Assembly (NCBI GenBank): GCA_964016885.1
Contig: OZ024740.1
Location: forward strand, 281,356,001-281,420,000
Reading direction: 5' to 3'
Origin: Eledone cirrhosa
Lineage: Eukaryota
DNA length: 64,000 nt
Positions 17,295-60,310 of this stretch are shown in pieces. The notes below the pieces were generated by a model. The model had not been told where the DNA came from. It searched no databases and saw nothing but the letters and a program-made list of their open reading frames with translations. How positions within the stretch are numbered: the stretch's first letter is position 1; each line of letters begins with the position of its first letter. A program made the position numbers and the translations under genes.

Positions 17295-17325
<31 letters not shown>
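14680..17325 (+). mobile_element. L1/Tx1-type non-LTR retrotransposon (subfamily B), 5'-truncated, with internal deletions including about 2 kb of RT
   Basis: ORF1 remnant, APE (MTSLRIGSINARGL...VLVGEWN), a jump at about 16262 to the C-terminal CCHC (CPRC..ETVLHALDQC), AATAAA and an (ATT)n tail. Confidence 0.93.
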
Positions 17326-20300: not shown

Positions 20301-22103
20301 CATCTCCTCAGTGGCCGTATCTCTGTTCCAGGTATTATTTATCTCAGTATTCAGATCATTGTCTGCTTCGGGTGGTTCCTCCGTTCTCTCGACCTCTTCA
20401 CCTTCATTTCCCACTGGCTCGTTTGCCTGGCATACTCCACTCTCCATCTCCAAGCTAATCTCTCTGCTCAGTTCCTCCAGTTCCAGCTCGCTTATCCACC
20501 CATTAGTTCTTATTACCCGAGCCTGCCCGGCCAATTTTTGTTCATCTAATTTAAATAGACCAATCTCGTTCCAGATGTTATGCATCCGTCTCCTATAGCC
20601 CTTCTCCTTGGGGTTACTTTTCAGGTAACATTGCATAACAGTTCTATTCAATTCTTTCGTCCAGTTGGTTCTGGTCCCTTTCCTTCTTCTTCTTCCTCCG
20701 ACACCAGCAGTATTTGGTTGACAGCCAGGTTCCTGCTGCTGAGCCAGGGAGCACCTGTTGGGTGAGAGTCTGTCACATGACGTTCTAGTCTCCATTTCAC
20801 CGTTATTCGAACTGTTTAGGTTCGATATTTAAACACTCTTATCGAGGATTGGCGAATGTATGGTTACATACCCATCTGTGGATTCACCGTCTCCGGTGGT
20901 TGCGCCGCTCCGCTTGGCTCTTGTGTGGAATTATCACCACGCTGTAGACGAACACAAACAAACAAACAGAAAGAAAAAACCCCAAAAATGAATAAGCATA
21001 AGTTTCATTGTAATGTAGTGTTCGAATGTCTGACTTAGTTTTTCACTTCTCTTCTCTGTCCGTCCGCTTGTTTCTCTCTTCATTCTTATTTTCTTTACGT
21101 TTTTTTTTGTTTTTGTTTTTCTCTGTTTGTTTTTCTCTTTTTGTGCTGTTGTTGCTGTGCTGCTTTGGTTTTGATGTTTGTTTTTTCTTTTGAGTCTATC
21201 TATATATTTTGATGCCTTCCTCGTTTTTAGTAGGAATTCTATAATGTGGTGGCAGCAACTAGCAGGAAGCAATGGGAGAGAATAGCGGCGGTAGCGATAC
21301 TGAGACAGTGGTGGTGGTGATGTCGATACTGAGGCAGTGGTGGTGGTGATGTGATCGTATTACTGTAGTGATGGTGTTGTAGCGGTGGTAGCAATGAAGG
21401 AGTGGTGGCGGCGGTGATGGGATAGTGGTAGTAATGATGGCAGTGATGGTGGTGATGTGATCGTATTACTGTAGTGATGGTGTTGTAGCGGTGGTAGCAA
21501 TGAAGGAGTGGTGGCGGCGGTGATGGGATAGTGGTAGTAATGATGGATGAGCGGCGTTGTCGTTACTGATGTCCGTTCGGTGAATCTATGGGGTTAGTCG
21601 CGTACATGTTTGTGACATAAATTCCCTTAATGTTGGACTTAAACATTTTGTTAAAACTTGAGACAATAATACTAGTATCTATTATTATCATTATTATGTT
21701 GAGATTGGTTGTGGTGGTGGTGAAATTGCCGTTATCTGGCTGTTGCGTTTAGTGTACACAGAGAGGTGATGGGGTAGGTGGTGTATCTAGTTCTGGTATT
21801 GGTGAGATTGGTGTTGTTTGGCTGTTCTATACAGTGTAGACAGATGAGGGGAGGGTCTTCTTCTTCCAGTTATTGCCATTTTCTTTTTTGAATATACAAT
21901 GTACAATACAAAGTTGAATATTTGAATATTTGAGCCTATTAACAATATATTTTCGGTCCGAATTTTTTTTGGGCTCAAGCCGGATGCTTTACGTAGCATT
22001 TGTACTAAGAGTTGTTATTTCACAAATGATTTAAATATGTTAAAAATTCAAAACTTACGGGAGCGATTTCATGACCTTCTACCACCTCGTGTGTCTTCTT
22101 CCC
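17326..22103 (-). mobile_element. R4/Dong-type RLE non-LTR retrotransposon, full length, frameshifted (copy D1)
   Basis: N-terminal WTKELN domain, RT ([25 protein letters not shown]), CCHC and RLE (KPDLVVVD...IVDVACPFD...EKINRY), flanked by (TTA)n. Confidence 0.93.
17406..20795 (-). pseudogene. RT-RLE polyprotein of Dong copy D1 (two frameshifts)
   Basis: ORF pieces 20169-20795, 17915-20089 and 17406-17975. Confidence 0.9.
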
Positions 22104-22134
<31 letters not shown>

Positions 22135-25100
22135 GTTGTTATTCCTTGAATCTCAGTCATTGATGTTGGTTAACTGGAAAGTCCGTTGGAATGAATATCA
22201 AGCCACTACCTGCAGCCTCAGATATTCAGGACGTATCGGACGGTTCTTTCTGTTCCAAGCAAGCATGCCTTTTGAAGCGTTCCAAAAAGCGTGAAGGGGC
22301 CGATTTTCTTCAACCATCCCTGGAAACTTTTGGAGATAGTCCCCAGTGCGCCTATGACAATCGGGATCACTTTGACTTCATGGCAGTTCCAAATCCTTTT
22401 TACCTCCCACTTTAAGTCCTGGTATCGGTTAATTTTCTCCCTCTCCTTCTCTTGCACTCTCGTGTCGAATGGGCAGGCCACATCCACAATCAGACACGAT
22501 CTTTTTTCTTTGTCCACAACCACCAGGTCAGGTTTATTGTGTTCCAGTTTCTTGTCCGTCTGTATCCTAAAATCCCACAGCACCTTCACCTGATCGTTCT
22601 CCATCACCGCCTCTGGCTTATGCTCATACCATTTCTCAGAATGTGGTAAATTGTTTACTTTGCACAGGTGCCAGTGGATGACCCTGCCCATCACATCGTG
22701 TCTCCAGCCCTTATAGTGGGTCTGGGCTAGGTGTTTACACTCGGACACAATGCGAGCCACAGTCTCCTCTCTCTCTCCACAGATCCTGCACAGTGGGCTA
22801 GCCTCCTCCTTGTAGATATGGTGCTTCAACCACTTCGTTTTGAGGGCCTGCTCCTGCGCAGCCATTAGCATTCCTTCTGTAGCCTTTTTGAGGTCTCCTC
22901 TTCTCAACCAGTTCCATGTCTGTGGATCTCTAAATTCAGTTTTCTCAAAGAAGGTACTATGAAGGGATTTTCCCTTAAGGCTGCTCTTCCTCCTTGGACA
23001 TCCCCTGGCCTACTGTCCCCTCCTTCAGTACAGTTCTGAGCATTGGCTCCTTACTATAGGTCACGTATTTGTATAGCTTGTTTTTCTCCATCTGAACACA
23101 GTCCTCTATGCTGATAAGACCTCTTCCACCCTCAGATCTCCTTAGGTAGAGTCTATCGACATCACTCCTCTTGTGGAACATGTTGTAGATAGTCAATAGC
23201 TTCCTAGTCTTCCTATCCATTTCTTTTTGTTCAGCAACATTCCATCTCAGAATTCCCGCACTGTACCTAATAATAGACACAGCTCGGGAATTTACTGCGC
23301 TTATGGCATTTCTGCTGTTCAGATGTGACTTCAATACGCTCCTTACTCTCCGAATGTATTCAGTTCTTAACAATTCCTTCATTTTTTTGTTCTTTATGCC
23401 ATCAGCCTCCAGAACGCCCAAATACTTGTATCCTTCCTCAGAGTCAATTTCCTTTATCATCTCACCTGTTGGTATCTGGATCCCGTTACTTCTGCTCAAC
23501 CTACCCCTCTTCATCACAATGACTCCACATTTACCAATACCAAACTGCATACATATATCACTGCTGAAAATACGGACAGTGTCAACAAGCACATCCAACT
23601 CCTTCTCAATTTTCCCGAAGAGCTTAAGATCGTCCATGAAGAGGAGGTGATTGATGGTAAGCTCTCCCCTTCCCAACTTGTATCCTGCTCTCACTTTTCG
23701 CAGCATAATGGTCAAGGGCATCAGGGCAAGGACAAACAACAGAGGGGACAGGCTATCTCCCTGGAAGATACCTCTCTTGATCTTCACGCTTCCCAAGGAT
23801 ACTCCAGTTGATGTCAACTCTGTCTCCCAGGACCCCATACTCCTGCCTAGCAACTGTCTGATGTTATCTGCCACCCTGAAGATCTCCAGGCTTTTGGTGA
23901 TCCAGGAATGAGGCACCATGTCAAATGCCTTTCTGTAGTCTATCCATCCCATGGCAAGATCAGTGTGTCTCCTCCTGCAATTCCCCATTACCATCTTATC
24001 AATAAGTAACTGGTCCTTTGTACCACGTGACTTCTTTCGGCATCCTTTCTGTTCGTCCGGTAACAAGTTGTTTGTGTGGAGGTGATGTTAGATTTCCTCA
24101 GACACAATGCTCGTCAACAGTTTCCACATTACGGACAGACATGTGATAGGTCTATAGTTGGTAACATCATTACCCTTGATTCGGTCTTTCATTATCAGAA
24201 CTGTGGTACCTTTTGTCAACCACTCTGGCACCTCACCCGACACCAAGCAGTCATTGAACATGGCCGTCAGCTTCGGGTGGAGGGATGTTAAATGTTTAAT
24301 CCAATACCCCTGCACACCATCTGGGACTGGTGATTTCCAGTTGGTTAGTTTTTTGGCCTGCCCCTTAAGAGTTTCAACTGTGATACTCAAATCTGTTTGT
24401 TGTTGTGCCTGCTCACCGATCTCCCTCTGTACTGTCTCAATCCACCCTGCCTGGGCATTGTGTCTAACATCCTGCTCCCATATTCCTCTCCAGAATGTTT
24501 TAGTTTGCTCCGCCCCAGGGATCAAGTCGTTGCCTCTTTCTTTCCCCTCAAGCTGTCCAAACAGCATCTTCTGGTTGTTGTCGAACATGCGGTTCTGTTT
24601 ATACTGACTGACTCTGTTCTCGTATCGCCTGATTTTTGCACTCTTTGCTACAATGCGTTGCTTCAATTCCTCTATGATAATATTTAGCTTTTTCCTCCTA
24701 GTTTTGTATTTTATTTCCAGTCTATTTTTAGTGCCTATGTTTTTTAGTGTCCCATTCAGTAGTGACTCAAGCTTTCCTATGTCATTTCTCATTTCCCCGA
24801 TTTGCCCACTCAGTCGCTTCTTCCACCACGGCTCTGCTCTTTCTTGTCTGTTGTTTCCTCTCGCTTTTATACCAAGTAGTTTCCTCACCGTATTTGCTGT
24901 TGCTTTGAGGATATTGTTGCACTGGTGAAGGCTCCTCGCCTCAAGGTATGGGATGACTTTGTTTACCTTAGCTGTTGTTTCTTTTAACTTTTTCCTGTCT
25001 ACAAATCTTAGGTTCATAGGTCTCCCACTATCATTGTTCAATTCATCTACCACTAAATTTAGGATGTCAACCGAATCTTGTCCTAGCCCGTCAGCATTCA

Positions 25101-26651
25101 TCTCCTCAGTGGCCGTATCTCTGTGGCCGTATCTCAGTGGCCGTATCTCAGTATTCAGATCATTGTCTGATTCGGGTGGTTCCTCCGTTCTCAGGACCTC
25201 TTCACCTTCATTTCCCACTGGCTCGCTTGTCTGGCATACTACACCCGCCATCTCCAAGCCATTCTCTCTGCTCAGTTGCTCCAGTTCCATCTCGCTTATC
25301 CATCCATTAGTTCTTATTACCCGAGCCTGCCCGGCCAATTTTTGTTCATCTAATTTAAATAAACCAATCTCGTTCCAGATGTTATGCATCCGTCTCCTGT
25401 AGCCCCTCTCCTTGGGGTTACTTTTCAGGTAACATTGCATAACAGTTCTATTCAATTCTTTCGTCCAGTTGGTTCTGGCCCCTTTCCTTCTTCTCCTTCC
25501 TCCAACATCAGCAGTATTTGGTTGACAGTCAGGTTCCTGCTGCTGAGCCAGGGGGCACCTGTTGGGTGAGAGTCTGTCACATGACGTTCTAGTCTCCATT
25601 TCACCGTTATTCGAACTGTTTATGTTCGATATTTAAACACTCTTATCGAGGATTGGCGAATGTATGGTTACATATCCATCTGTGGATCCGCCATTCCACT
25701 TGGCCCTTGTGTGGCATTATCACCACGCTGTATACGAACACACATAAACAAACAAACACACAGGCAGAAAGGGCCCCAAAAATGAATAAGCATAAGTTTC
25801 ATTGTTCGAATGTCTGACTTAGTTTTTGTTTTTTAAGTTTTAGTTTTTCCCCCCTCTTCTCTGTCCGTCCGCCTGCTTCTCTCTTCATTCTTATTTTCTT
25901 TACGTTTTTTTGTTTTTTTGTTTTTTTGTTGTTTTTTTTGTTTTTCTCTGTTTGTTTTTCTCGTCTTTTGCTGTTGTTGCTGTGCTGCTTTGGTTTTGTT
26001 GTTTGTTTTTTCTTTTTTCTTTTGAGTCTATCTATATATTTTGATGCCTTCCTCTTTTTTAGCAGTAGGGATTCTATAATGTGGTGGCAGCAGCCAGCTA
26101 AAAGAAGAAGTGGGAGACTGGCGGCGGTAGCGATACTGAGACAGTGGTGGTGGTGATGTCGATACCGAGGCAGTGGTGGCGGTGATGTGACCGTATTACT
26201 GTAGTGATGGTGCTGTAGCGGTGGTAGCAGTGAAGGAGTGAAGGGGTGGTGGCGGCGGTGATGAGATAATGGTTGTAATGATGGCCGTAGTGAGCGGTGG
26301 TGGTTTAGTGTACACAGGTGACGGGGTGGGTGGTGTATCTAGTTTCTGGTGTTGGTGAGTTTGGCTGTTCTATATAGTGTAGACAGAGGAGGAGGGGGGG
26401 GGGGGGGTTCTTCTTCCATTTATAGCCATTTTCTTTTTTGGATATACAGTGTACAATACAAAGTTGAATATTTGAATATTTGAGCCTTATAACAATATAT
26501 TTTGGGTCCGAATTTTTTGGGGCTCAAGCCGGGTGCTTTACGTAGCATTTGTACTAAGAGTTGTTATTTCACAAATGATTTAAATATGTTAAAAATTCAA
26601 AACTTACGGGAGCGATTTCATGACCTCCGTCACCTCGTGCGTCTTCTTCCC
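22135..26651 (-). mobile_element. R4/Dong-type element, second tandem copy (D2)
   Basis: Close homolog of D1 with the same termini, bounded by (TTA)n at 22104-22134 and 26652-26735. Confidence 0.93.
22218..25599 (-). pseudogene. RT-RLE polyprotein of Dong copy D2 (premature stop at 24088, deletion near 22988)
   Basis: ORF pieces 24088-25599, 22975-24066 and 22218-22907. Confidence 0.9.
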
Positions 26652-26735
<84 letters not shown>

Positions 26736-34932: not shown

Positions 34933-34992
<60 letters not shown>

Positions 34993-34997
<5 letters not shown>

Positions 34998-36283
34998 GCG
35001 GTTGCCGGTCCGGCAGAAATTAGAAATTGGAATAAATGCTCTGAAATAGCGATATATATGTGAATATAGACATAGAATATTCGAAAATATTCTGTATGTT
35101 TATAATAAACATTTTGAAGACCTAATCGCTATAGAATAGAATACGTCACGTATTACAATTAGATTCTCGATAAAAGCAAGGGAAGTAAATCTACGCGTTT
35201 CATTCTCGTTAGAAATCGTCAGGACTACATATCCAGTGCTTTTATCGAGAATGACACAGCTTTATCGCTATTTCAGAGCATTTATTCCAATTTCTAATTT
35301 CTGCCGGACCGGCAACCGCTCTTTCAAACCAGTTCCTGTACACAGCTAAGTATTCTATAAGTCTCTAGCTGTGTCATTCTCGATAAAAGCACTGGATATG
35401 TAGTCCTGACGATTTCTAACGAGAATGAAACGCGTAGATTTACTTCCCTTGCTTTTATCGAGAATCTAATTGTAATACGTGACGTATTCTATTCTATAGC
35501 GATTAGGTCTTCAAAATGTTTATTATAAACATACAGAATATTTTCGAATATTCTATGTCTATATTCACATATATATCGCTATTTCAGAGCATTTATTCCA
35601 ATTTCTAATTTCTGCCGGACCGGCAACCGCTCTTTCAAACCAGTTCCTGTACACAGCTAAGTATTCTATAAGTCTCTAGCTGTGTCATTCTCGATAAAAG
35701 CACTGGATATGTAGTCCTGACGATTTCTAACGAGAATGAAACGCGTAGATTTACTTCCCTTGCTTTTATCGAGAATCTAATTGTAATACGTGACGTATTC
35801 TATTCTATAGCGATTAGGTCTTCAAAATGTTTATTATAAACATACAGAATATTTTCGAATATTCTATGTCTATATTCACATATATATCGCTATTTCAGAG
35901 CATTTATTCCAATTTCTAATTTCTGCCGGACCGGCAACCGCTCTTTCAAACCAGTTCCTGTACACAGCTAAGTATTCTATAAGTCTCTAGCTGTGTCATT
36001 CTCGATAAAAGCACTGGATATGTAGTCCTGACGATTTCTAACGAGAATGAAACGCGTAGATTTACTTCCCTTGCTTTTATCGAGAATCTAATTGTAATAC
36101 GTGACGTATTCTATTCTATAGCGATTAGGTCTTCAAAATGTTTATTATAAACATACAGAATATTTTCGAATATTCTATGTCTATATTCACATATATATCG
36201 CTATTTCAGAGCATTTATTCCAATTTCTAATTTCTGCCGGACCGGCAACCGCTCTTTCAAACCAGTTCCTGTACACAGCTAAG

Positions 36284-36287
<4 letters not shown>
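34993..36287 (+). mobile_element. Retrozyme-like / non-autonomous PLE array: one inverted partial unit plus 3.3 tandem 311-bp units, within (TA)n
   Basis: atcgctatttcagagc recurs at 35264, 35575, 35886 and 36197, and 34993-35261 is inverted. Each full unit has a hammerhead. Confidence 0.9.
35402..35440 (+). ncRNA. Type I hammerhead in the array unit (also 35713-35751 and 36024-36062; inverted copy 35188-35226)
   Basis: agtc-CTGACGA-t ttct aacg agaa t-GAAA-cgcg-TA-gatt, closed by a 16-bp helix attctcgataaaagca/tgcttttatcgagaat. Confidence 0.85.
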
Positions 36288-36338
<51 letters not shown>

Positions 36339-48565: not shown

Positions 48566-48778
48566 GAATGCCATGGTTGACGGAGGCTCGGCTCTGTAAG
48601 GTATAGTAATTTTTAACCGTTAAAACAATTGTAAATTGTTTAAAACTTGAACCAAATTGTTGATAAAGACACCCTCCTCCTCGTGAGAGGGGTCTTTCTG
48701 TCCGTTATTTGGCCCTTCGGGGTTAAATAACCAGTTATTGGGGTTTTGTACCCAAAATTTCATTTTAAACAAAAAAAC

Positions 48779-50698
48779 ATGGCTACCAAAAAGAAATTTC
48801 ATACGTCACTCCCACTCATTCCGTCTTCTTCTTCCTCAATCATCACTACAGCAGAGAGAAGATTGTCTCTCTCCCTCCCTTCTTTAAATGTGTCTCTCTC
48901 CCTCCCTTCTCTTTCGCAAGCGACGAAAGAAAAGAAAAGTCTCGTGCAAAGCGTGCAAGGTTTCTCCACGACGACGACGACAGCGACGAAACAGGTGTGC
49001 GGGAAATACGAAAACCCAGTTCATTCGTCTGACGTCAGGAATAATAGCAGTAGCAGCCGTAATAACAACAGCAACAGTGACAATGAAAACAACAGTAGCA
49101 GCCGCAACAGCATCACCAGCAGCATAAACAACAACAGCATTAGCAGCAGCAACACCAACAACAACCACAGCAACAGCGGCGGAGGCAGTAGTCGTAGTAC
49201 CTGCAGCAACAAAAGTACCAGCAGCTCTGACGACAACAACAACAGCAGAGAAAAACCAATCTCATTTGCAGGTATTGCGAAAAACTTGGAAACAATCCTC
49301 ATAACAAATGAGGAATTAGAGGAAGCGAAGAAGATGGTGACAAAGAACGGACACCGAGCAATCTGCAAGGCAGCGAAACATTTTTTCGAAACCCAAGAGC
49401 ACTGTACGGTCACGTACCGTACAGTAAGTACAAAATCCCGTAGGGTGGAAAGAGCCACAGAGGCCCAAATACAAAAAGCCTTGGGGTCTGTGTGGCAGAG
49501 GAAAACGCACATCACCCAAGGCAAAAAATACGCCACCGTAGACGTACTTTTTGCCACACCCCAGGAGGCAAAGGCCCAATCAGTAGTGACCCTAAGGAGC
49601 GAGGAAATGGTGTTGGTGCCCTCCTACTGCGGGCAAAAAATTGTGAGGGTCAAACTGACCCACGTCCCCCCCGGAATGACCCCTTCTTGGCTGGCCGCGT
49701 CTGTCCTCGTCGGAATCGAGGACAAAACAACTGTACTGCAAGTACAGAAAAAAGTAAGAGAAGATTGGGTCGGCTCCTCCATTGAGATGCTAATCCAAAC
49801 CAACCAGGAGTGCATCGAAGCTATCCCGGATGTGATAGACTTCGATAACGGCACTCAACTGCCCATAAGTGTTGAGGGCAAACGCCCGAAATGCTTTCGC
49901 TGTGGATCGAAGACTCACCTCAGGGCCTTCTGCAACGAGAAGACCCTGAGAAAGGAGAAAACCCCCCTCCTTCCGAATCCGGCTCCACGGCTACCAGCAA
50001 CAGGACAAGCGGCAACCAGGAACGATAGGTCCGTGGCACCCATACCCACTCCACGGAAATCAAAGACAGCAGCAGCAGTGGAAATATTAACAACAACAAC
50101 AGCAATACCAAATGCAGCTGCAACAGAGACTCCAGTGCAAACATCACCAACAACAACAAGTGAAAGAGTGGAGCTGGTACCCCTCCCCGACCTTACAGAA
50201 TCAGACATGGATGTGTGAGGTGGGAGAGGGATGGCAAAAGGTCGCAAGAAGGCACAAACGCAGAAGCAGCGCATCGTCGCCTTTGAAAAGGGAGGAAAGA
50301 AATGAGAAAAGGGTAAAGTCTACTGCAAAGAGACCCACAGCAGCAACACCACCAACACCATCACCACCCACACCAGCACCACCATCACCACCGGCGACAA
50401 CCCCACCGCCAACAACACCTTCAACACCACCACCACAAGCACCAACATCGCAAACACAACAACAAAACACACACACCCAGCAACAACGACAAGAAAATAG
50501 CAGAACCACACCCCACCCCCAGAAAAACAAATGCACGGCAATAAACACACACAACAAGAAACTAATGACTTACATAATTGAACACACAGACATTTCAAAA
50601 CAGGACTACATAATACCAGCACCAATCAAAACGCCAACTAACATAAGACTGCTAAAAATAGCACAGAAACAATACACAAACATTAAAACGAAATTCCC
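48779..50698 (+). pseudogene. ORF1 (gag-like, CCHC knuckle) of copy A1, frameshifted at about 50212
   Basis: CFRCGSKTHLRAFC; one extra base relative to A2. Confidence 0.85.
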
Positions 50699-53600
50699 GA
50701 TGTGTACGCATCTCCCAGCCGTCCTGGATCGGGTGGAGGAGTTGCTGTGCTTTTTCGGAGAGGTTTGGATCTCGCCATACGGGCCATCTTCCTGGACCCA
50801 GAGGGTAAGCTGGTGGTGCTGGACGTGACCAGTGGAGACGGGCAAGCTTTCAGGCTAGTGGCCGTCTATGCCCCGACAGGAGCAGGGCGGCCTGATTTCT
50901 TCCGGCGTCTGGAGACCTTTCTTGGAACGTCCCGCTCTTTAGTGTTAGTGGGCGACTGGAACGGGATCTTAGATGCACGCTGGGACTGTGTGGGATTAGC
51001 GGATAGGGGTGGAGGGTGCAAGAGCCTCACCAACCTGCTCAGGCGTTTTGAACTGTCTGACAGGTACCGATTGGATTTCCCGAATGTGCCAATGTGGACT
51101 TGGACAAACCGCATAGGGTCATCCAGATCATATCTAGATAGAGTATTTTGTAGGGAAATAGATAGGTCTAGCATAGGCTGTCCACAATTCAAGATAGTCA
51201 GCTACACGGACCACAAATTCGTGATCTGTGTGCTTGACTTAGATAGGCTTCATAGACGAGGACCCGGCTACTGGAAGCTAAACGCGTCCTTACCAGCGCG
51301 CAAGGCCTACAGAGACCGGATTAGCGAACTAGTTAAGCGGGCGTTGACGCGGGCCATCGTCAACAACAAGTGGTGGTTTGCTCTGAAAAGAGCGATTAGA
51401 ATAGAATCGATTAGGTTTAGTAAGGCTTTAGCAATAGAGAAAAATAGAGCAGAGGGAGAACTAGTTAGAAAATTAGACGAGGCGCTTAGCAAAGGCATTG
51501 CGACCGACGTGCTTGCGGCGAAATTGGCCCTTGACCAATTCTTCAATGCAAAGCACGAAGGCTGCGTTGTCAGAGCTAGGGTGCGTGCTCTCAGACACGA
51601 GGGGACGAAAGCCGTTCAATGGGCCCGAGTGGCGGAGGCGCGTCGTGGCAACAAAGCCACGATCCAGTCTTTGGTGGACCACGACGGGCGCATGCTACTC
51701 GATCCCGGGCAAATGTGTGAAGCTTTTCAGCGACACTTCGCTCAGCTGTTCGGGGGCAGCGGGGGGCCGGGTAGAGGGATGGACTTTAGTGTCTACCTCG
51801 ACGGACTGCCGCGGCTCTCGGCCACTGAGGCGAAGTGTTGCGAAAAGCCGATAACAGCCGCTGAAGTACGGGAGGCAATGACTGGCTGCACAAGGGGTAA
51901 ATCGCCTGGTTTGGATGGTCTGCCCTATGAACTTTACGTACAGATGCCAGACTTGTTCGGAGGCCTCTTGGCGGACGTCTACTGCAACTGGCAACAGAAC
52001 GGGAGAATTCCCAGTTCTGTGAGCCGAGGAGCGGTGGCACTGCTGAGAAAGGATCCGAACAAGGGGGATAACATAGACAATTTCCGGCCCATAACTCTGC
52101 TAAACACAGAGTTTAAGATTTTGGCCAAGGTGCTAGCAAAGAGGTTGGCGCTTGTCGTTGGTGGTCTGGTGGGAGAGGCGCAGACATGCGCCATTCCCGA
52201 CAGATCCATCCACGACAACCTCCACCTCATGCGATACATCGTAGAGAGGGTAGCTAGGGAACCTGGCACGGGTGGGTCCTTGATCAATTTAGATCAGTCG
52301 AAAGCTTTCGATAGGGTCGACCATCGTTACCTAGCGGCAGTCCTGAGGGCGGCTGGCTTTGGGCCCGTCTTCAGAGGCTGGATCGCTGCCATGCACAGCG
52401 ACATCTGCTCTGTGGTGAGAGTGAACGGTCACCTGTCGGAACCGTTCAACATCATGCGCTCGGTCCGCCAAGGATGTCCCCTCTCGTCCCTCTTGTACGT
52501 ATTGACTCTCGAGCCATTACTGCACAAACTGGAGACGTTGAGGGGAGTCCCGCGCGAACTAGGATGCGGAAGATCCGTGTCAGCATATGCGGACGATGTC
52601 ACCGTAGTGGTGTCGAACGCCAAACACATCGAGGCGATCGGCACTACACTAAGAGAATACGAAGCGGTGACAGGAGCAATGATCAACCAGGAAAAGTCAG
52701 TGGGCCTGCAGCTCGGCACCTGGAGAGGCAGGTCCATGCCGTCCAACAGCGTCGTCGGGCGCTGGACGGACGGACCGGTTAAATTGCTAGGGGTCTGGTT
52801 CGGTCCGGACCTCCAGACGGACAAAAACTGGGACGAGGTGACGAGCAGGGTGGCTTCTCTCACCCAGAAATGGGCGGAGAGGAAGCTATCCCTGAAAGGT
52901 CGAGCGGAGGTGGCTAACGCGTACATCGCGTCTGTCATCTGCTACCGCCTAACCGTCGTACCTTGTCCTAAGCCTCGCCTGACTGCGCTGGAGCGTTTGC
53001 TCTTTCGCTTTTTGTGGAAGGGACGTGCTCCGATGGTCAGGCGGTCCATCTGTTGTCAACACCCGCTACGTGGAGGGCTGGGCATGCCGTGGCTGATGAT
53101 GCGCAGGCACGCGCTCAGGCTACGACATCTCCACCTCTTCCTCGACGGTGATCAGGTGTGGTCGCCGTTTGCTAGACGCGTTTTTCCCCAGCTCGTTTCC
53201 TTGACGGAGCTGCAGTCCTGGGTCAAGCGAAGACCGAGAGGGAGCGCCTGGAGACTGGAATGTCTTCAGGCGCTCACAGCCCTCGACCAATCGGGCAATG
53301 TGATCGGTGGAAACTCCACCTCGGCGTTCTATAGAGGATTAGTGGAGGGGAAGAGCGACGACGTACTTGGGGAAACTCTAGGCGTCGACGAAAATCAACT
53401 AGCCAATCTCTTCGGAAGAACTTTCGGGCCAGGGCCTATGGACAACTTCCAGAAATCTCTGGCCTGGCAGTGCTACCGAGGAGCCTTGCCAGTTCGGGAT
53501 AAACTCTACAGGCATGGAGGTGCCGTCAGTCGGGCATGTCCGAGATGCGCGCAGGGCGACGAAACCGTCCTGCACGCACTCGTCCAGTGTCTGAAAATTG

Positions 53601-53953
53601 CTGACTTGTGGGTTTATGTCGAACACCTGCTGTCGCGTTTAGGACGGATCCAGCTATCATCTGAGTCTATCGTGAGGATTGCCCCGCCCTCCTCCTTTAG
53701 CCGGGAAGGGCAGGCAGTTTTTATCTGTCTGGTGGCCATGGCGAAAGAGATAGTATGGTGGACACGTTTGAAAGGGCTGAAGACGAGCACTTACCTCTTC
53801 GGTGATGCTCTGATTGACTTTTTCAAATTTCATTTGAAAAGGAAAATCAGAGTAGAGAAGGAAGTGCTCTCTTCCCAGCATTTTGTTGAAAGATGGGTGA
53901 GAGAAGCAAGAATGGCCCGAGTGAATGGGCCGACTCTGAGTATATATCTGTAA
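50699..53953 (+). pseudogene. ORF2 (APE-RT-CCHC) of copy A1 lacking the N-terminal part of the endonuclease
   Basis: Open 1083-aa frame, but the first about 55 codons including the INARG and SETR motifs are missing. Confidence 0.85.
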
Positions 53954-54213
53954 ACTAAAGGTGGAAAACTGGGAGAGGGCACTTGCCTTGGTGGTCAGGG
54001 TCATTGTGGCTTTTTACTGGGCTTTCTCCACAAATGTCCCTCCGAAGTCTCCCCCCTATTGGGGAATTTTTCATTGTTATTTTCATTGTTATTTTTGTTA
54101 CATCCTCTGTTTTTGTTTTTTTACACGCAGAAATGCCCATTTGTACCGTCCTGCATTGTCCTGCACTGTCCTTAATGTCTACTTTATGTAAACCCTTGTG
54201 GTTAATAAAGAAA

Positions 54214-54254
<41 letters not shown>

Positions 54255-54467
54255 GAATGCCATGGTTGACGGAGGCTCGGCTCTGTAAGGTATAGTAATT
54301 TTTAACCGTTAAAACAATTGTAAATTGTTTAAAACTTGAACCAAATTGTTGATAAAGACACCCTCCTCCTCGTGAGAGGGGTCTTTCTGTCCGTTATTTG
54401 GCCCTTCGGGGTTAAATAACCAGTTATTGGGGTTTTGTAGCCAAAATTTCATTTTAAACAAAAAAAC

Positions 54468-56540
54468 ATGGCTACCAAAAAGAAATTTCATACGTCACTC
54501 CCACTCATTCCGTCTTCTTCTTCCTCAATCATCACTACAGCAGAGAGAAGATTGTCTCTCTCCCTCCCTTCTTTAAATGTGTCTCTCTCCCTCCCTTCTC
54601 TTTCGCAAGTGACGAAAGAAAAGAAAAGTCTCGTGCAAAGCGTGCAAGGTTTCTCCACGACGACGACGACAGCGACGAAACAGGTGTGCGGGAAATACGA
54701 AAACCCAGTTCATTCGTCTGACGTCAGGAATAATAGCAGTAGCAGCCGTAATAACAACTGCAACAGTGACAATGAAAACAACAGTAGCAGCCGCAACAGC
54801 ATCACCAGCAGCATAAACAACAACAGCATTAGCAGCAACAGCGGCGGAGGCAGTAGTCGTAGTACCTGCAGCAACAACAAAAGTACCAGCAGCTCTGACG
54901 ACAACAACAACAGCAGAGAAAAACCAATCTCATTTGCAGGTATTGCGAAAAACTTGGAAACAATCCTCATAACAAATGAGGAATTAGAGGAAGCGAAGAA
55001 GATGGTGACAAAGAACGGACACCGAGCAATCTGCAAGGCAGCGGAAACATTTTTCAAAACCCAAGAGCACTGTACGGTCACGTACCGTACAGTAAGTACA
55101 AAATCCCGTAGGGTGGAAAGAGCCACAGAGGCCCAAATACAAAAAGCCTTGGGGTCTGTGTGGCAGCGGAAAACGCACATCACCCGAGGCAAAAAATATG
55201 CCACCGTAGACGTACTTTTTGCCACACCCCAGGAGGCAAAGGCCCAATCAGTAGTGACCCTAAGGAGCGAGGAAATGGTGTTGGTGCCCTCCTACTGCGG
55301 GCAAAAAATTGTGAGGGTCAAACTGACCCACGTCCCCCCCGGAATGACCCCTTCTTGGCTGGCCGCGTCTGTCCTAATCGGAATCGAGGACAAAACAACT
55401 GTACTGCAAGTACAGAAAAAAGTAAGAGAAGATTGGGTCGGCTCCTCCATTGAGATGCTAATCCAAACCAACCAGGAGTGCATCGAAGCTATCCCGGATG
55501 TGATAGACTTCGATAACGGCACTCAACTGCCCATAAGTGTTGAGGGCAAACGCCCGAAATGCTTTCGCTGTGGATCGAAGACTCACCTCAGGGCCTTCTG
55601 CAACGAGAAGACCCTGAGAAAGGAGAAAACCCCCCTCCTTCCGAATCCGGCTCCACGGCTACCAGCAACAGGACAAGCGGCAACCAGGAACGATAGGTCC
55701 GTGGCACCCATACCCACGCCACGGAAATCAAAAACAGCAGCAGCAGTGGAAATATTAACAACAACAACAGCAATACCAAATGCAGCTGCAACAGAGACTC
55801 CAGTGCAAACATCACCAACAACAACAAGTGAAAGAGTGGAGCTGGTACCCCTCCCCGACCTCACAGAATCAGACATGGAGTGTGAGGTGGGAGAGGGATG
55901 GCAAAAGGTCGCAAGAAGGCACAAACGCAGAAGCAGCGCATCGTCGCCTTTGAAAAGGGAGGAAAGAAATGAGAAAAGGGTAAAGTCTACTGCAAAGAGA
56001 CCCACAGCAGCAACAACACCAACACCATCACCACCCACACTAGCACCACCATCACCACCGGCGACAACCCCACCGCCAACAACACCTTCAACACCACCAC
56101 CACAAGCACCAACATCGCAAACACAACAACAAAACACACACACCCAGCAACAACGACAAGAAAATAGCAGAACCACACCCCACCCCCAGAAAAACAAATG
56201 CACGGCAATAAATACACACAACAAGAAACTAATGACTTACATAATTGAACACACAGACATTTCACAACAGGACTACATAATACCAGCACCAATCAAAACG
56301 CCAACTAACATAAGACTGCTAAAAATAGCACAGAAACAATACACAAACATTAAAACGAAATTCCCCAACGCAGTTGGTGATTTCAGGGACCTAGGAGGAA
56401 CCATCAATCGAAGAGTATACTCAGACATTCTCTTAGAAGAGCCGACGACCAGCCGAAGGGACGATTCAACGGTCCCTTCACCAGACGATCAAGTGAAAAG
56501 GGATGTAAAAACCATCCCTCCTCTACCAAAAGTACGGTAA
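54468..56540 (+). CDS. ORF1 nucleic-acid-binding protein (low-complexity N-terminus, probable RRM-like core, CCHC knuckle, Pro/Thr-rich tail), 690 aa
   Basis: Open frame, CFRCGSKTHLRAFC, and position upstream of APE-RT. Confidence 0.9.
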   Translation: MATKKKFHTSLPLIPSSSSSIITTAERRLSLSLPSLNVSLSLPSLSQVTKEKKSLVQSVQGFSTTTTTATKQVCGKYENPVHSSDVRNNSSSSRNNNCNSDNENNSSSRNSITSSINNNSISSNSGGGSSRSTCSNNKSTSSSDDNNNSREKPISFAGIAKNLETILITNEELEEAKKMVTKNGHRAICKAAETFFKTQEHCTVTYRTVSTKSRRVERATEAQIQKALGSVWQRKTHITRGKKYATVDVLFATPQEAKAQSVVTLRSEEMVLVPSYCGQKIVRVKLTHVPPGMTPSWLAASVLIGIEDKTTVLQVQKKVREDWVGSSIEMLIQTNQECIEAIPDVIDFDNGTQLPISVEGKRPKCFRCGSKTHLRAFCNEKTLRKEKTPLLPNPAPRLPATGQAATRNDRSVAPIPTPRKSKTAAAVEILTTTTAIPNAAATETPVQTSPTTTSERVELVPLPDLTESDMECEVGEGWQKVARRHKRRSSASSPLKREERNEKRVKSTAKRPTAATTPTPSPPTLAPPSPPATTPPPTTPSTPPPQAPTSQTQQQNTHTQQQRQENSRTTPHPQKNKCTAINTHNKKLMTYIIEHTDISQQDYIIPAPIKTPTNIRLLKIAQKQYTNIKTKFPNAVGDFRDLGGTINRRVYSDILLEEPTTSRRDDSTVPSPDDQVKRDVKTIPPLPKVR

Positions 56541-56575
56541 GTGGTCTTTCCCATCTTTTCCACTCTATTTTAAAC

Positions 56576-59500
56576 ATGACCTCACTCAGAATAGGCAGCA
56601 TAAATGCGCGTGGCTTGGGGTCGTCATGGAAGCAGGGTCACCTGCTCAACGACCTCAGGTCACTAAACATAGATGTAGTGGCCATCAGCGAGACCAGAAT
56701 CTCCGAAGCACGGGCCTTCGTACCGATCTTCGGCGGCTACGATGTGTACGCATCTCCCAGCCGTCCTGGATCGGGTGGAGGAGTTGCTGTGCTTTTTCGG
56801 AGAGGTTTGGATCTCGCCATACGGGCCATCTTCCTGGACCCAGAGGGTAAGCTGGTGGTGCTGGACGTGACCAGCGGAGACGGGCAAGCTTTCAGGCTAG
56901 TGGCCGTCTATGCCCCGACAGGAGCAGGGCGGTCTGATTTCTTCCGGCGTCTGGAGACCTTTCTTGGAACGTCCCGCTCTTTAGTGTTAGTGGGCGACTG
57001 GAACGGGATCTTAGATGCACGCTGGGACTGTGTGGGATTAGCGGATAGGGGTGGAGGGTGCAAGAGCCTCACCAACCTGCTCAGGCGTTTTGAACTGTCT
57101 GACAGGTACCGATTGGATTTCCCGAATGTGCCAATGTGGACTTGGACAAACCGCATAGGGTCATCCAGATCATATCTAGATAGAGTATTTTGTAGGGAAA
57201 TAGATAGGTCTAGCATAGGCTGTCCACAATTCAAGATAGTCAGCTACACGGACCACAAATTCGTGACCTGTGTGCTTGACTTAGATAGGCTTCATAGACG
57301 AGGACCCGGCTACTGGAAGCTAAACGCCTCCTTACCAGCGCGCAAGGCCTACAGAGACCGGATTAGCGAACTAGTTAAGCGGGCGTTGACGGGGGCCATC
57401 GTCAACAACAAGTGGTGGTTTGCTCTGAAAAGAGCGATTAGAATAGAATCGATTAGGTTTAGTAAGGCTTTAGCAATAGAGAAAAATAGAGCAGAGGGAG
57501 AACTAGTTAGAAAATTAGACGAGGCGCTTAGCAAAGGCATTGCGACCGACGTGCTTGCGGCGAAATTGGCCCTTGACCAATTCTTCAATGCAAAGCACGA
57601 AGGCTGCGTTGTCAGAGCTAGGGTGCGTGCTCTCAGACACGAGGGGACGAAAGCCGTTCAATGGGCCCGAGTGGCGGAGGCGCGTCGTGGCAACAATGCC
57701 ACGATCCGGTCTTTGGTGGACCACGACGGGCGCATGCTACTCGATCCCGGGCAAATGTGTGAAGCTTTTCAGCGACACTTCGCTCAGCTGTTCGGGGGCA
57801 GCGGGGGGCCGGGTAGAGGGATGGACTTTAGTGTCTACCTCGACGGACTGCCGCGGCTCTCGGCCACTGAGGCGAGGTGTTGCGAAAAGCCGATAACAGC
57901 CGCTGAAGTACGGGAGGCAATGACTGGCTGCACAAGGGGTAAATCGCCTGGTTTGGATGGTCTGCCCTATGAACTTTACGTACAGATGCCAGACTTGTTC
58001 GGAGGCCTCTTGGCGGACGTCTACTGCAACTGGCAACAGAACGGGAGAATTCCCAGTTCTGTGAGCCGAGGAGCGGTGGCACTGCTGAGAAAGGATCCGA
58101 ACAAGGGGGATAACATAGACAATTTCCGGCCCATAACTCTGCTAAACACAGAGTTTAGGATTTTGGCCGGGGTGCTAGCGGAGAGGTTGGCGCTTGTCGT
58201 TGGTGGTCTGGTGGGAGAGGCGCAGACATGCGCCATTCCCGACAGATCCATCCACGACAACCTCCACCTCATGCGATACATCGTAGAGGGGGTAGCTAGG
58301 GAACCTGGCACGGGTGGGTCCTTGATCAATTTAGATCAGTCGAAAGCTTTCGATAGGGTCGACCATCGTTACCTAGCGGCAGTCCTGAGGGCGGCTGGCT
58401 TTGGGCCCGTCTTCAGAGGCTGGATCGCTGCCATGCACAGCGACATCTGCTCTGTGGTGAGAGTGAACGGTCACCTGTCGGAACCGTTCAACATCATGCG
58501 CTCGGTCCGCCAAGGATGTCCCCTCTCGTCCCTCTTGTACGTATTGACTCTCGAGCCATTACTGCACAAACTGGAGACGTTGAGGGGAGTCCCGCGCGAA
58601 CTAGGATGCGGAAGATCCGTGTCAGCATATGCGGACGATGTCACCGTAGTGGTGTCGAACGCCAAACACATCGAGGCGATCGGCACTACACTAAGAGAAT
58701 ACGAAGCGGTGACAGGAGCAATGATCAACCAGGAAAAGTCAGTGGGCCTGCAGCTCGGCACCTGGAGAGGCAGGTCCATGCCGTCCAACAGCGTCGTCGG
58801 ACGCTGGACGGACGGACCGGTTAAATTGCTAGGGGTCTGGTTCGGTCCGGACCTCCAGACGGACAAAAACTGGGACGAGGTGACGAGCAGGGTGGCTTCT
58901 CTCACCCAGAAATGGGCCGAGAGGAAGCTATCCCTGAAAGGTCGAGCGGAGGTGGCTAACGCGTACATCGCGTCCGTCATCTGCTACCGCCTGACCGTCG
59001 TACCTTGTCCTAAGCCTCGCCTGACTGCGCTGGAGCGTTTGCTCTTTCGCTTTTTGTGGAAGGGACGCGCTCCGATGGTCAGGCGGTCCATCTGTTGTCA
59101 ACACCCGCTACGTGGAGGGCTGGGCATGCCGTGGCTGATGATGCGCAGGCACGCGCTCAGGCTACGACATCTCCACCTCTTCCTCGACGGTGATCAGGTG
59201 TGGTCGCCGTTTGCTAGACGCGTTTTTCCCCAGCTCGTTTCCTTGACGGAGCTGCAGTCCTGGGTCAAGCGAAGACCGAGAGGGAGCGCCTGGAGACTGG
59301 AATGTCTTCAGGCGCTCACAGCCCTCGACCAATCGGGCAATGTGATCGGTGGAAACTCCACCTCGGCGTTCTATAGAGGATTAGTGGAGGGGAAGAGCGA
59401 CGACGTACTTGGGGAAACTCTAGGCGTCGACGAAAATCAACTAGCCAATCTCTTCGGAAGAACTTTCGGGCCAGGGCCTATGGACAACTTCCAGAAATCT

Positions 59501-59995
59501 CTGGCCTGGCAGTGCTACCGAGGAGCCTTGCCAGTTCGGGATAAACTCTACAGGCATGGAGGTGCCGTCAGTCGGGCATGTCCGAGATGCGCGCAGGGCG
59601 ACGAAACCGTCCTGCACGCACTCGTCCAGTGTCCGAAAATTGCTGACTTGTGGGTTTATGTCGAACACCTGCTGTCGCGTTTAGGACGGATCCAGCTATC
59701 ATCTGAGGCCATCGTGAGGATTGCCCCGCCCTCCTCCTTTAGCCGGGAAGGGCAGGCAGTTTTTATCTGTCTGGTGGCCATGGCGAAAGAGATAGTATGG
59801 TGGACACGTTTGAAAGGGCTGAAGACGAGCACTTACCTCTTCGGTGATGCTCTGATTGACTTTTTCAAATTTCATTTGAAAAGGAAAATCAGAGTAGAGA
59901 GGGAAGTGCTCTCTTCCCAGCATTTTGTTGAAAGATGGGTGAGAGAAGCAAGAATGGCCCGAGTGAATGGGCCGACTCTGAGTATATATCTGTAA
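56576..59995 (+). CDS. ORF2 apurinic-type endonuclease / reverse transcriptase / C-terminal zinc knuckle, 1139 aa
   Basis: SINARGL, ISETR, LVGDWN, YLDR, YTDH (APE); GYWKLN; KSPGLDGL, NFRPITLLN, DQSKAFDRV, VRQGCPLS, YADD (RT); CPRC..ETVLHALVQC. Confidence 0.96.
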   Translation: MTSLRIGSINARGLGSSWKQGHLLNDLRSLNIDVVAISETRISEARAFVPIFGGYDVYASPSRPGSGGGVAVLFRRGLDLAIRAIFLDPEGKLVVLDVTSGDGQAFRLVAVYAPTGAGRSDFFRRLETFLGTSRSLVLVGDWNGILDARWDCVGLADRGGGCKSLTNLLRRFELSDRYRLDFPNVPMWTWTNRIGSSRSYLDRVFCREIDRSSIGCPQFKIVSYTDHKFVTCVLDLDRLHRRGPGYWKLNASLPARKAYRDRISELVKRALTGAIVNNKWWFALKRAIRIESIRFSKALAIEKNRAEGELVRKLDEALSKGIATDVLAAKLALDQFFNAKHEGCVVRARVRALRHEGTKAVQWARVAEARRGNNATIRSLVDHDGRMLLDPGQMCEAFQRHFAQLFGGSGGPGRGMDFSVYLDGLPRLSATEARCCEKPITAAEVREAMTGCTRGKSPGLDGLPYELYVQMPDLFGGLLADVYCNWQQNGRIPSSVSRGAVALLRKDPNKGDNIDNFRPITLLNTEFRILAGVLAERLALVVGGLVGEAQTCAIPDRSIHDNLHLMRYIVEGVAREPGTGGSLINLDQSKAFDRVDHRYLAAVLRAAGFGPVFRGWIAAMHSDICSVVRVNGHLSEPFNIMRSVRQGCPLSSLLYVLTLEPLLHKLETLRGVPRELGCGRSVSAYADDVTVVVSNAKHIEAIGTTLREYEAVTGAMINQEKSVGLQLGTWRGRSMPSNSVVGRWTDGPVKLLGVWFGPDLQTDKNWDEVTSRVASLTQKWAERKLSLKGRAEVANAYIASVICYRLTVVPCPKPRLTALERLLFRFLWKGRAPMVRRSICCQHPLRGGLGMPWLMMRRHALRLRHLHLFLDGDQVWSPFARRVFPQLVSLTELQSWVKRRPRGSAWRLECLQALTALDQSGNVIGGNSTSAFYRGLVEGKSDDVLGETLGVDENQLANLFGRTFGPGPMDNFQKSLAWQCYRGALPVRDKLYRHGGAVSRACPRCAQGDETVLHALVQCPKIADLWVYVEHLLSRLGRIQLSSEAIVRIAPPSSFSREGQAVFICLVAMAKEIVWWTRLKGLKTSTYLFGDALIDFFKFHLKRKIRVEREVLSSQHFVERWVREARMARVNGPTLSIYL

Positions 59996-60260
59996 ACTAA
60001 AGGTGGAAAACTGGGAGAGGGCACTTGCCTTGGTGGTCAGGGTCATTGTGGCTTTTCACTGGGCTTTCTCCACAAATGTCCCTCCGAAGTCTCCCCCCTA
60101 TTGGGGAATTTTTCATTGTTATTTTTTATTGTTATTTTTGTTACATCCTCTGTTTTTTTTTTTTTTTTTACACGCAGAAATGCCCATTTGTACCGTCCTC
60201 CATTGTTCTGCACTGTCCTTAATGTCTACTTTATGTAAACCCTTGTGGTTAATAAAGAAA

Positions 60261-60310
<50 letters not shown>

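Follow-up and report, generated by a model that had tools for sequence, protein, structure and literature searches.

Can RNA editing be written into the DNA of a retrotransposon? The question is raised by a 64,000-nucleotide (nt) stretch of the genome of the octopus Eledone cirrhosa (contig OZ024740.1, positions 281,356,001 to 281,420,000 of the forward strand; hereafter the window, whose own numbering is used throughout), in which four copies of a long interspersed nuclear element (LINE), here called C, A1, A2, and B, lie head to tail from 44.9 kb onward. Copy A2 (54255 to 60310, + strand) is a full-length young LINE with a 5' untranslated region (5' UTR), open reading frame 1 (ORF1), ORF2, a 3' UTR, and an (ATT)n tail. 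Within 24 nt of its ORF2 it has G at five positions where its neighbor A1 (48566 to 54254, + strand), an unedited member of the same young subfamily with an internal deletion of ~375 nt and a frameshift in ORF1, has A. The initial annotation of the window proposed that ADAR had edited the template RNA before integration and that the edits had been fixed in DNA by retrotransposition. We consider it probable, with considerable confidence, that ADAR edits a few percent of the RNAs of this LINE, which then retrotranspose into heritable DNA. A family-wide excess of clustered A>G changes on the sense strand, which the annotation had offered as a check, was indeed found, and it is located in the 5' UTR.

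The substitutions listed for A2 are present in the assembly: at 58158, 58169, 58170, 58180, 58181, 58289, and 57876 it carries G where A1 carries A, in copies that are nearly identical, as had been claimed (99.07% over 3,562 nt). The outgroup state is A, as copy C has A at all seven sites and copy B has A at all but those removed by its deletion of 58165 to 58170. The five private changes at 58158 to 58181 (+ strand) recode FKILAKVLAKRL to FRILAGVLAERL, giving K>R, K>G, and K>E in the fingers motif of the reverse transcriptase (RT), and 58289 gives an additional R>G change 108 nt downstream of the cluster. A family sample was assembled by fetching 180 further places, all on contig C1, with motifs that did not fix the sites in question; of the 182 rows including A1 and A2, the 131 that differed by <2% from the column majority were analyzed as young copies, and 16 rows at 2 to 10% and 35 at ≥10% were set aside. 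Each of the five Gs occurs in 1 of 129 young copies and 58289G in 1 of 128; this sixth private change (+ strand) may be a separate mutation because its 5' neighbor is G, which is atypical for ADAR. The seventh, 57876G, had been counted as part of the same event and has to be removed from it, being an inherited sub-lineage allele carried by 20 of 128 young copies.

The LINE family is large, with 4,277 places in the 3.0-Gb assembly matching the 33-mer around the A2 cluster when either A or G is allowed at the five sites. The first 100 matches listed have A at all five; G at 58170 and G at 58181 are each found in 11 of the 4,277, all five Gs are found only in A2, and no other match has more than two. 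If the other three sites are assumed to be equally rare, ~5e-10 copies would be expected to have acquired all five by independent mutation. Two of the 131 young copies, A2 and a copy designated L251, have five or more A>G changes within 150 nt, a density reached in none of 500 permutations, and no run of T>C, G>A, or C>T is longer than three in 150 nt. An early sample of 31 copies had made 58181G (13/31) and 58289G (15/31) look like subfamily alleles; these were rejected as products of selection bias because the search behind that sample favored rare words of the query, and 58181G has a genome-wide count of 11 in 4,277. ADAR editing of the template is likely to explain the cluster in A2.

The 5' UTR provides the recurrent signal. 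L251 has five A>G changes there, four of them after U, and a DNA search with its 5' UTR returned 47 candidates, 40 of which were scored and represented 30 loci; the 27 with young-type 5' ends were used and the 3 older ones were not. Removal of the query, of one copy that the unselected set already contained, and of five tandem twins left 20 independent copies. At sites other than those of the query these 20 have 23 A>G and 7 other changes, whereas the corresponding numbers for the 113 unselected copies are 6 and 56 (Fisher p = 1.8e-10), and among the 30 non-query changes there is no A>T and no A>C. At least 13 independent young copies, L251 included, have 2 to 12 A>G changes in the first ~240 nt. 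The hot spot (54288 to 54492, + strand; A2 and A1 are themselves unedited in it) covers the 5' UTR and the first codons of ORF1, with recurrent sites at 54298, 54304, 54311, 54331, 54356, 54414, and 54426, and 54414 is changed in 12 of the 13 multiply edited copies. These copies arose independently: they sit on both strands of the assembly and on different haplotype backgrounds, with combinations of sites that are not nested. The most heavily changed copy is L289, in which 174 nt contain 12 A>G and no other change, and the rest of the copy (5.8 kb) contains a single further rare change; there are 5 A>G in L274 and 6 in L278. A further search with the L289 5' end returned mostly a lineage carrying G at 54419 and no new multiply edited copy, and the older-type 5' UTRs (24 distinct) contained no A>G cluster of three.

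The preference of ADAR for the nucleotide 5' of the edited adenosine runs in the order U>A>C>G, and the 5' UTR set conforms to it. The 53 events in the 13 copies follow U in 35 cases, A in 16, C in 2, and G in none, where 17, 37, 9, and 7 adenosines, respectively, were available; counted as distinct sites, edits were found at 10 of 17 after U, 10 of 37 after A, 2 of 9 after C, and 0 of 7 after G, and the non-query events alone are distributed as 10, 11, 2, and 0. The edited copies are not older than the rest (a median of 6.5 rare changes beyond the 5' end in the 20 selected copies versus 10), 15 of these 20, on refetching, keep a frame of at least 1,130 amino acids (aa), and the (ATT)n tract directly upstream was unchanged, as judged by eye, in 10 of 10 edited copies. 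We regard it as very likely that editing of the template by ADAR explains the 5' UTR set.

The strand was controlled across the whole assembly with the 33-mer at 54396 to 54428, which has 1,000 exact matches. With inherited alleles held fixed, 1,032 places matched when A>G was allowed at 7 sites and 1,003 when T>C was allowed at 11, giving 32 copies with A>G at seven As versus 3 with T>C at eleven Ts (binomial p = 1e-10, or 8e-9 with known tandem twins collapsed), a comparison that describes the hot spot rather than an average rate, as the segment was chosen because L251 is changed there. Our first counts (189 copies with A>G over eight As among 1,189 matches and 49 with T>C over twelve Ts among 1,049) were discarded as inflated by two inherited alleles, 54419G in 157 copies (1,189 minus 1,032) and 54412C in 46.

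The choice of that segment is one of several points that weigh against an origin in edited RNA. None of the A>G sites is confirmed by a raw read of DNA or of RNA. In the rare changes of young copies taken in bulk there is no excess of A>G (7.3 per 10,000 sites, versus 8.3 for T>C), and the bulk A>G changes show no neighbor bias, including at TpA. The control search for T>C was made at one site only and gave 2 young copies and no cluster. An older copy, L119 (G000:C1:90194130-90200380; 2.9% diverged), has four T>C changes in 103 nt of its 5' UTR (window equivalent 54293 to 54395) with nothing between them, three of them before A; this may reflect chance, antisense editing, or editing of the cDNA strand or of DNA in a hybrid. 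The A2 cluster itself fits the ADAR motif less well, having A, C, A, C, and A as its 5' neighbors (none is G), and both U-preceded adenosines of the tract (58157 and 58177) were skipped. The A-A-G context that had been noted for it describes two of the five sites and fails for the other three. Nor is the A2 site a family hot spot: among 38 older copies selected for one G and 26 unselected ones, A>G made up 17 of 295 and 2 of 89 changes, respectively (p = 0.27). Because the selected older copies show no extra A>G nearby, the cluster in A2 ORF2 is a single, one-off event.

Predicted RNA structure adds further points on the same side. The local hairpin that had been named as the editing substrate is not borne out, as the five sites have pairing probabilities of 0.00 to 0.36 in the unedited A1 sequence and are predicted to be mostly unpaired, while a paired UAG at 58177 is unedited in A2. 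No long inverted repeat was found inside the element, and the fold of the 5' UTR is modest (z score, −1.9). A strong hairpin is predicted between the A2 cluster and 58289 (58195 to 58262, + strand; z score, −6.6 for the A1 equivalent and −6.8), and it is unedited in A2. In the 5' UTR, a predicted 12-bp UUCG hairpin (54393 to 54420, + strand) contains the most commonly changed site, 54414, in paired form, together with the lineage allele 54419G; the other 5' UTR sites are not paired in it. Long-range pairing inside the element was also considered as a substrate for A2 and rejected, as only weak matches were found, with a 25-nt match near the cluster at an E value of 1.3. Separately, the coding RNA is predicted to fold with unusual stability at ~55555 to 55705, 58155 to 58305, and 59555 to 59705 (z scores, −6.8 to −8.2; 15 shuffles each), and in the 131-copy sample these folds had no editing hot spot.

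An alternative origin of the changes is on DNA, during or after insertion, whether ADAR worked on a DNA:RNA hybrid, a DNA mutator was directed at TpA, or an error-prone polymerase such as Pol eta was involved. The errors of Pol eta are W-preceded (A or T), as the edited sites mostly are, and the changes are concentrated at the 5' end, where second-strand synthesis begins, but this polymerase also makes many A>T and A>C changes, which are lacking among the 30 non-query changes. ADAR can edit DNA in model hybrids (cited in PMC12925331; this and the other papers given by PMC number are cited for parts of their text), and the four-site T>C cluster of L119 would suit such a process, but editing of the first cDNA strand would appear as T>C. 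Hypermutation of double-stranded TpA, which should turn TA to TG and TA to CA alike, is at odds with the bias of 32 versus 3. The load of changes, moreover, does not grow with age, and A-rich tracts upstream are intact; we consider an origin on DNA unlikely. Bursts of misincorporation by the RT, for example when deoxynucleoside triphosphate pools are unbalanced, would place C opposite template A and would likewise be specific for the sense strand and present from birth, and the lack of a 5' U bias in the A2 cluster is compatible with them. They would leave unexplained the recurrence of the same 5' UTR sites in 13 independent copies and the absence of any of the 53 events after G; bulk A>G is not raised, and wobble errors, which should produce G>A and T>C instead of A>G, also count against this very improbable origin.

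It is also possible to suspect errors of sequencing, polishing, or assembly. At 58158, run X1 has letters other than A at 24.5 of a depth of 349,823, and X4 and X5 have only A, a comparison that uses runs not known to come from the assembled animal and contigs of other or unknown individuals, with no piece that spans the locus. In addition, singleton A>G and T>C changes number 81 and 52 in copies on the + strand of the assembly versus 52 and 58 in copies on the − strand. Errors would not be expected to behave as the clusters do, which track the strand of the element on both assembly strands and are shared between tandem neighbors: L278/L279 and L284 to L287 have identical edit sets together with private non-edit variants and differ downstream. 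The base accuracy of the assembly is high, because an uninterrupted frame of at least 1,130 aa is kept in 87 of 122 young full-length copies, and error is in our estimation a most unlikely source. The last candidate, transfer of the tract out of another subfamily through gene conversion or a template switch, gains some plausibility from the highly mosaic nature of the family, from a 27%-diverged subfamily that has 58180G, from the distant copies L062 to L064, which have two or three of the Gs, and from older 5' UTRs with G at 54304 and 54422. Yet the check for a donor that the annotation had called for found no such tract within 3 mismatches of the A2 form. Four other places lie within that distance, three in subfamilies 71 to 76% identical and one an older copy, L065, which has the 58169-58170 doublet in common with A2; at most three of the five Gs are present in any of them, and where three are present the letter at 58175 is different. 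The Gs of the 5' UTR, for their part, stand amid young-type flanking letters in non-nested combinations. We give copying from another subfamily almost no weight.

Editing of the template RNA is favored because the changes are pure A>G, on one strand, and clustered, with 5' U favored and 5' G avoided, and because they are found in the youngest copies with the upstream (ATT)n intact. The enzyme is likely ADAR. The host genome has the PF02137 deaminase domain at four loci, and a host exon with the CHAE, PCGD, and MSCSDK motifs is 95% identical to Octopus vulgaris ADAR2. In the scheme that we propose, ADAR would turn adenosines into inosines in the LINE RNA before integration, and the RT of the element would then copy inosine as G into a new, heritable insertion during target-primed reverse transcription; that RT reads inosine as G is established (PMC5224506). 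Candidates for the duplex at the 5' end are a folded 5' UTR and a hybrid formed with antisense RNA along the first ~240 nt, and the A2 cluster may reflect a one-off encounter with a short duplex that local folding does not predict. The editing would take place in cells of the germline or early embryo.

The initial annotation suggested that such editing could be a heritable mutagen or a restriction mechanism for LINEs. The former is the likelier, at a low rate, and the latter receives no support here, as ~97% of copies are unedited in the hottest segment and most edited copies keep ORF2 open. In the hottest 33 nt, 32 of 1,032 copies (~3%, outside the 54419G lineage) have A>G, and at least 13 of roughly 1,200 copies have several. 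Because editing reaches only a few percent of insertions, it would be a low-rate mutagen and not a strong mutational defense, with the proviso that genomic copies represent only RNAs that were integrated and that edited RNAs failing to integrate are invisible in this record.

Within this picture of a low-rate mutagen, occasional hits may be damaging, such as that in the RT fingers of A2. The ORF2 of A2 is open (56576 to 59995, + strand) and encodes an APE endonuclease, an RT, and a zf-RVT domain, and its closest solved relative is human L1 ORF2p. By alignment to that protein, the A2 changes fall at the equivalents of K541 (now R), K545 (now G), and N549 (where K became E), and K541 and K545 are described as finger contacts to primer and template (PMC10830420, figure legend). 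All 12 of the other sequences in the alignment keep the first lysine, and at the second position all 12 have either K or R. Because the altered lysine positions are conserved in this way, the RT of A2 is probably impaired, and it is probably the K>G change that would cripple it.

Edited copies might themselves become source elements. The 54419G lineage has one haplotype in 9 of 9 copies sampled, with very few private changes, and it may represent an edit captured in a source element, although a single A>G is indistinguishable from ordinary mutation. We offer as a tentative proposal, more speculative than the rest, that germline ADAR in this octopus edits LINE RNA at a frequency that leaves a few percent of new insertions edited from birth, at reproducible sites, that edited copies can become source elements, and that the 157-copy 54419G lineage may descend from one.

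Inherited footprints of deaminases in retroelements are already known, and it is the family-wide, recurrent hot spot in a LINE that is the main new result. ADAR-type A-to-G hypermutation has been described in avian retroviruses, in the U3 region of Rous-associated virus and in an inverted repeat of avian leukosis virus (Felder 1994 and Hajjar and Linial 1995, via PMC12925331). Those cases also have clustered A>G changes ascribed to ADAR editing of RNA that was subsequently reverse transcribed, but the octopus element is a retrotransposon without long terminal repeats (non-LTR) in an animal genome assembly, with many independent copies and recurrent 5' UTR sites. The density of edits is also lower, at no more than 12 of ~60 adenosines compared with nearly 50% in the avian viruses, and the octopus LINE lacks a long inverted repeat. 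APOBEC editing of the DNA of endogenous LTR retrotransposons (Knisbacher and Levanon, PMC4866542; Zaranek et al., PMC2873906) is likewise the work of a host deaminase that leaves clustered, strand-specific transitions to be inherited with the new insertion; those changes are G>A, arise by deamination of cytidines in cDNA, and affect LTR elements of vertebrates, whereas the changes here are A>G, would have been made on RNA, and affect a LINE of an invertebrate. The word ADAR is absent from the main text of PMC4866542. In the 131 copies, APOBEC-type G>A clusters were not found (5 copies had three, compared with 3.7 in permutations, and none was larger). Independently of this, rare G>A changes exceed C>T on the sense strand of the young copies (19.6 versus 15.3 per 10,000 sites).

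ADAR also meets LINE RNA in human cells, where no editing was reported in >2.5 kb of L1 RNA and the block imposed by ADAR1 is independent of editing (Orecchini et al., PMC5224506); the octopus genomic record, in contrast, points to templates that were catalytically edited and nonetheless became integrated. Closer to the octopus, repeats of squid are widely edited outside the nervous system (Albertin et al., PMC9068888), which likewise indicates that coleoid ADAR acts widely on repeat-derived RNA. That evidence is at the level of RNA, and the paper as cited here has nothing on edits written back to DNA, whereas the octopus record is one of DNA. The same 2022 cephalopod genome paper named transposon defense as an unexplored function of editing, and a 2016 review centered on Alu regarded a role of ADAR in the evolution or mutational suppression of retrotransposon subfamilies as not determined (PMC4982230). 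The literature searched, which left most subscription papers and supplements outside, yielded no account of LINE copies in genomic DNA that carry ADAR edits, in cephalopods or elsewhere, and the portions of PMC7186786, PMC5974252, and PMC6015446 covered have nothing on write-back.

The remaining features of the locus bear on how the copies came to stand in tandem. All three LINE junctions in the window (C-A1, A1-A2, and A2-B) are (ATT)n tracts, that between A1 and A2 lying at 54215 to 54254 (+ strand). A1 and A2 belong to one young subfamily but were inserted separately; a tandem duplication was ruled out, as the nearest sampled relative of A2 is L067 (37 differences, compared with 44 from A1) and that of A1 is L239 (16 differences). 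The ORF1 of A2 (54468 to 56540, + strand) is open and has a CCHC-like knuckle by eye, and Pfam gave no match for it. The element shares with L1/Tx1-type non-LTR retrotransposons an ORF1 followed by an ORF2 with APE endonuclease, RT, and zf-RVT, and it differs in its (ATT)n tail and its target. Tandem insertion into repeats resembles that of Tx1 elements, and the LINE may have a Tx1 affinity. No named Tx1 reference was among the database matches of the octopus LINE.

Several observations were made in passing. Tandem neighbors often share their 5' part, including private variants, up to a breakpoint 3' of which they differ (L085/L184, L124/L207, L143/L144, L217 to L219, L239/L240, L242/L243, and L284 to L287 [L348 to L351]), and several other tandem pairs have no such sharing. 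This suggests that when a new copy inserts in (ATT)n upstream of an existing one, the DNA of that neighbor supplies the 5' end of the new copy; unequal crossing-over may be an alternative source of the sharing. Borrowing of the 5' end would, if true, account for many full-length, mosaic copies. The assembly also has a second, apparently young subfamily whose ORF2 is ~27% diverged (L104, L105, L107, L135, L138, L160, L172 to L176, L180, L181, and L183). Elsewhere in the window there are two decayed tandem copies, 93.6% identical, of another RT-bearing LINE (17295 to 26691, − strand), a palindrome-like stretch of 631 nt (1 to 631; 91%), and a nest of repeats, both inverted and direct, that are nearly perfect (34953 to 36326).

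More than 1,000 near-identical young copies with recurrent sites make the frequency and the sites of germline LINE editing countable from DNA alone, and whether edited copies leave fewer daughters can be counted in the same way. They also carry a warning that A>G differences seen between repeats in cephalopod genomes may in some cases be old edits. If the tentative proposal of edited source elements is true, levels of germline editing would be archived in the DNA of young LINE copies, and RNA editing would act as a heritable mutagen with a direction, one that introduces into these elements the changes by which subfamilies are defined.

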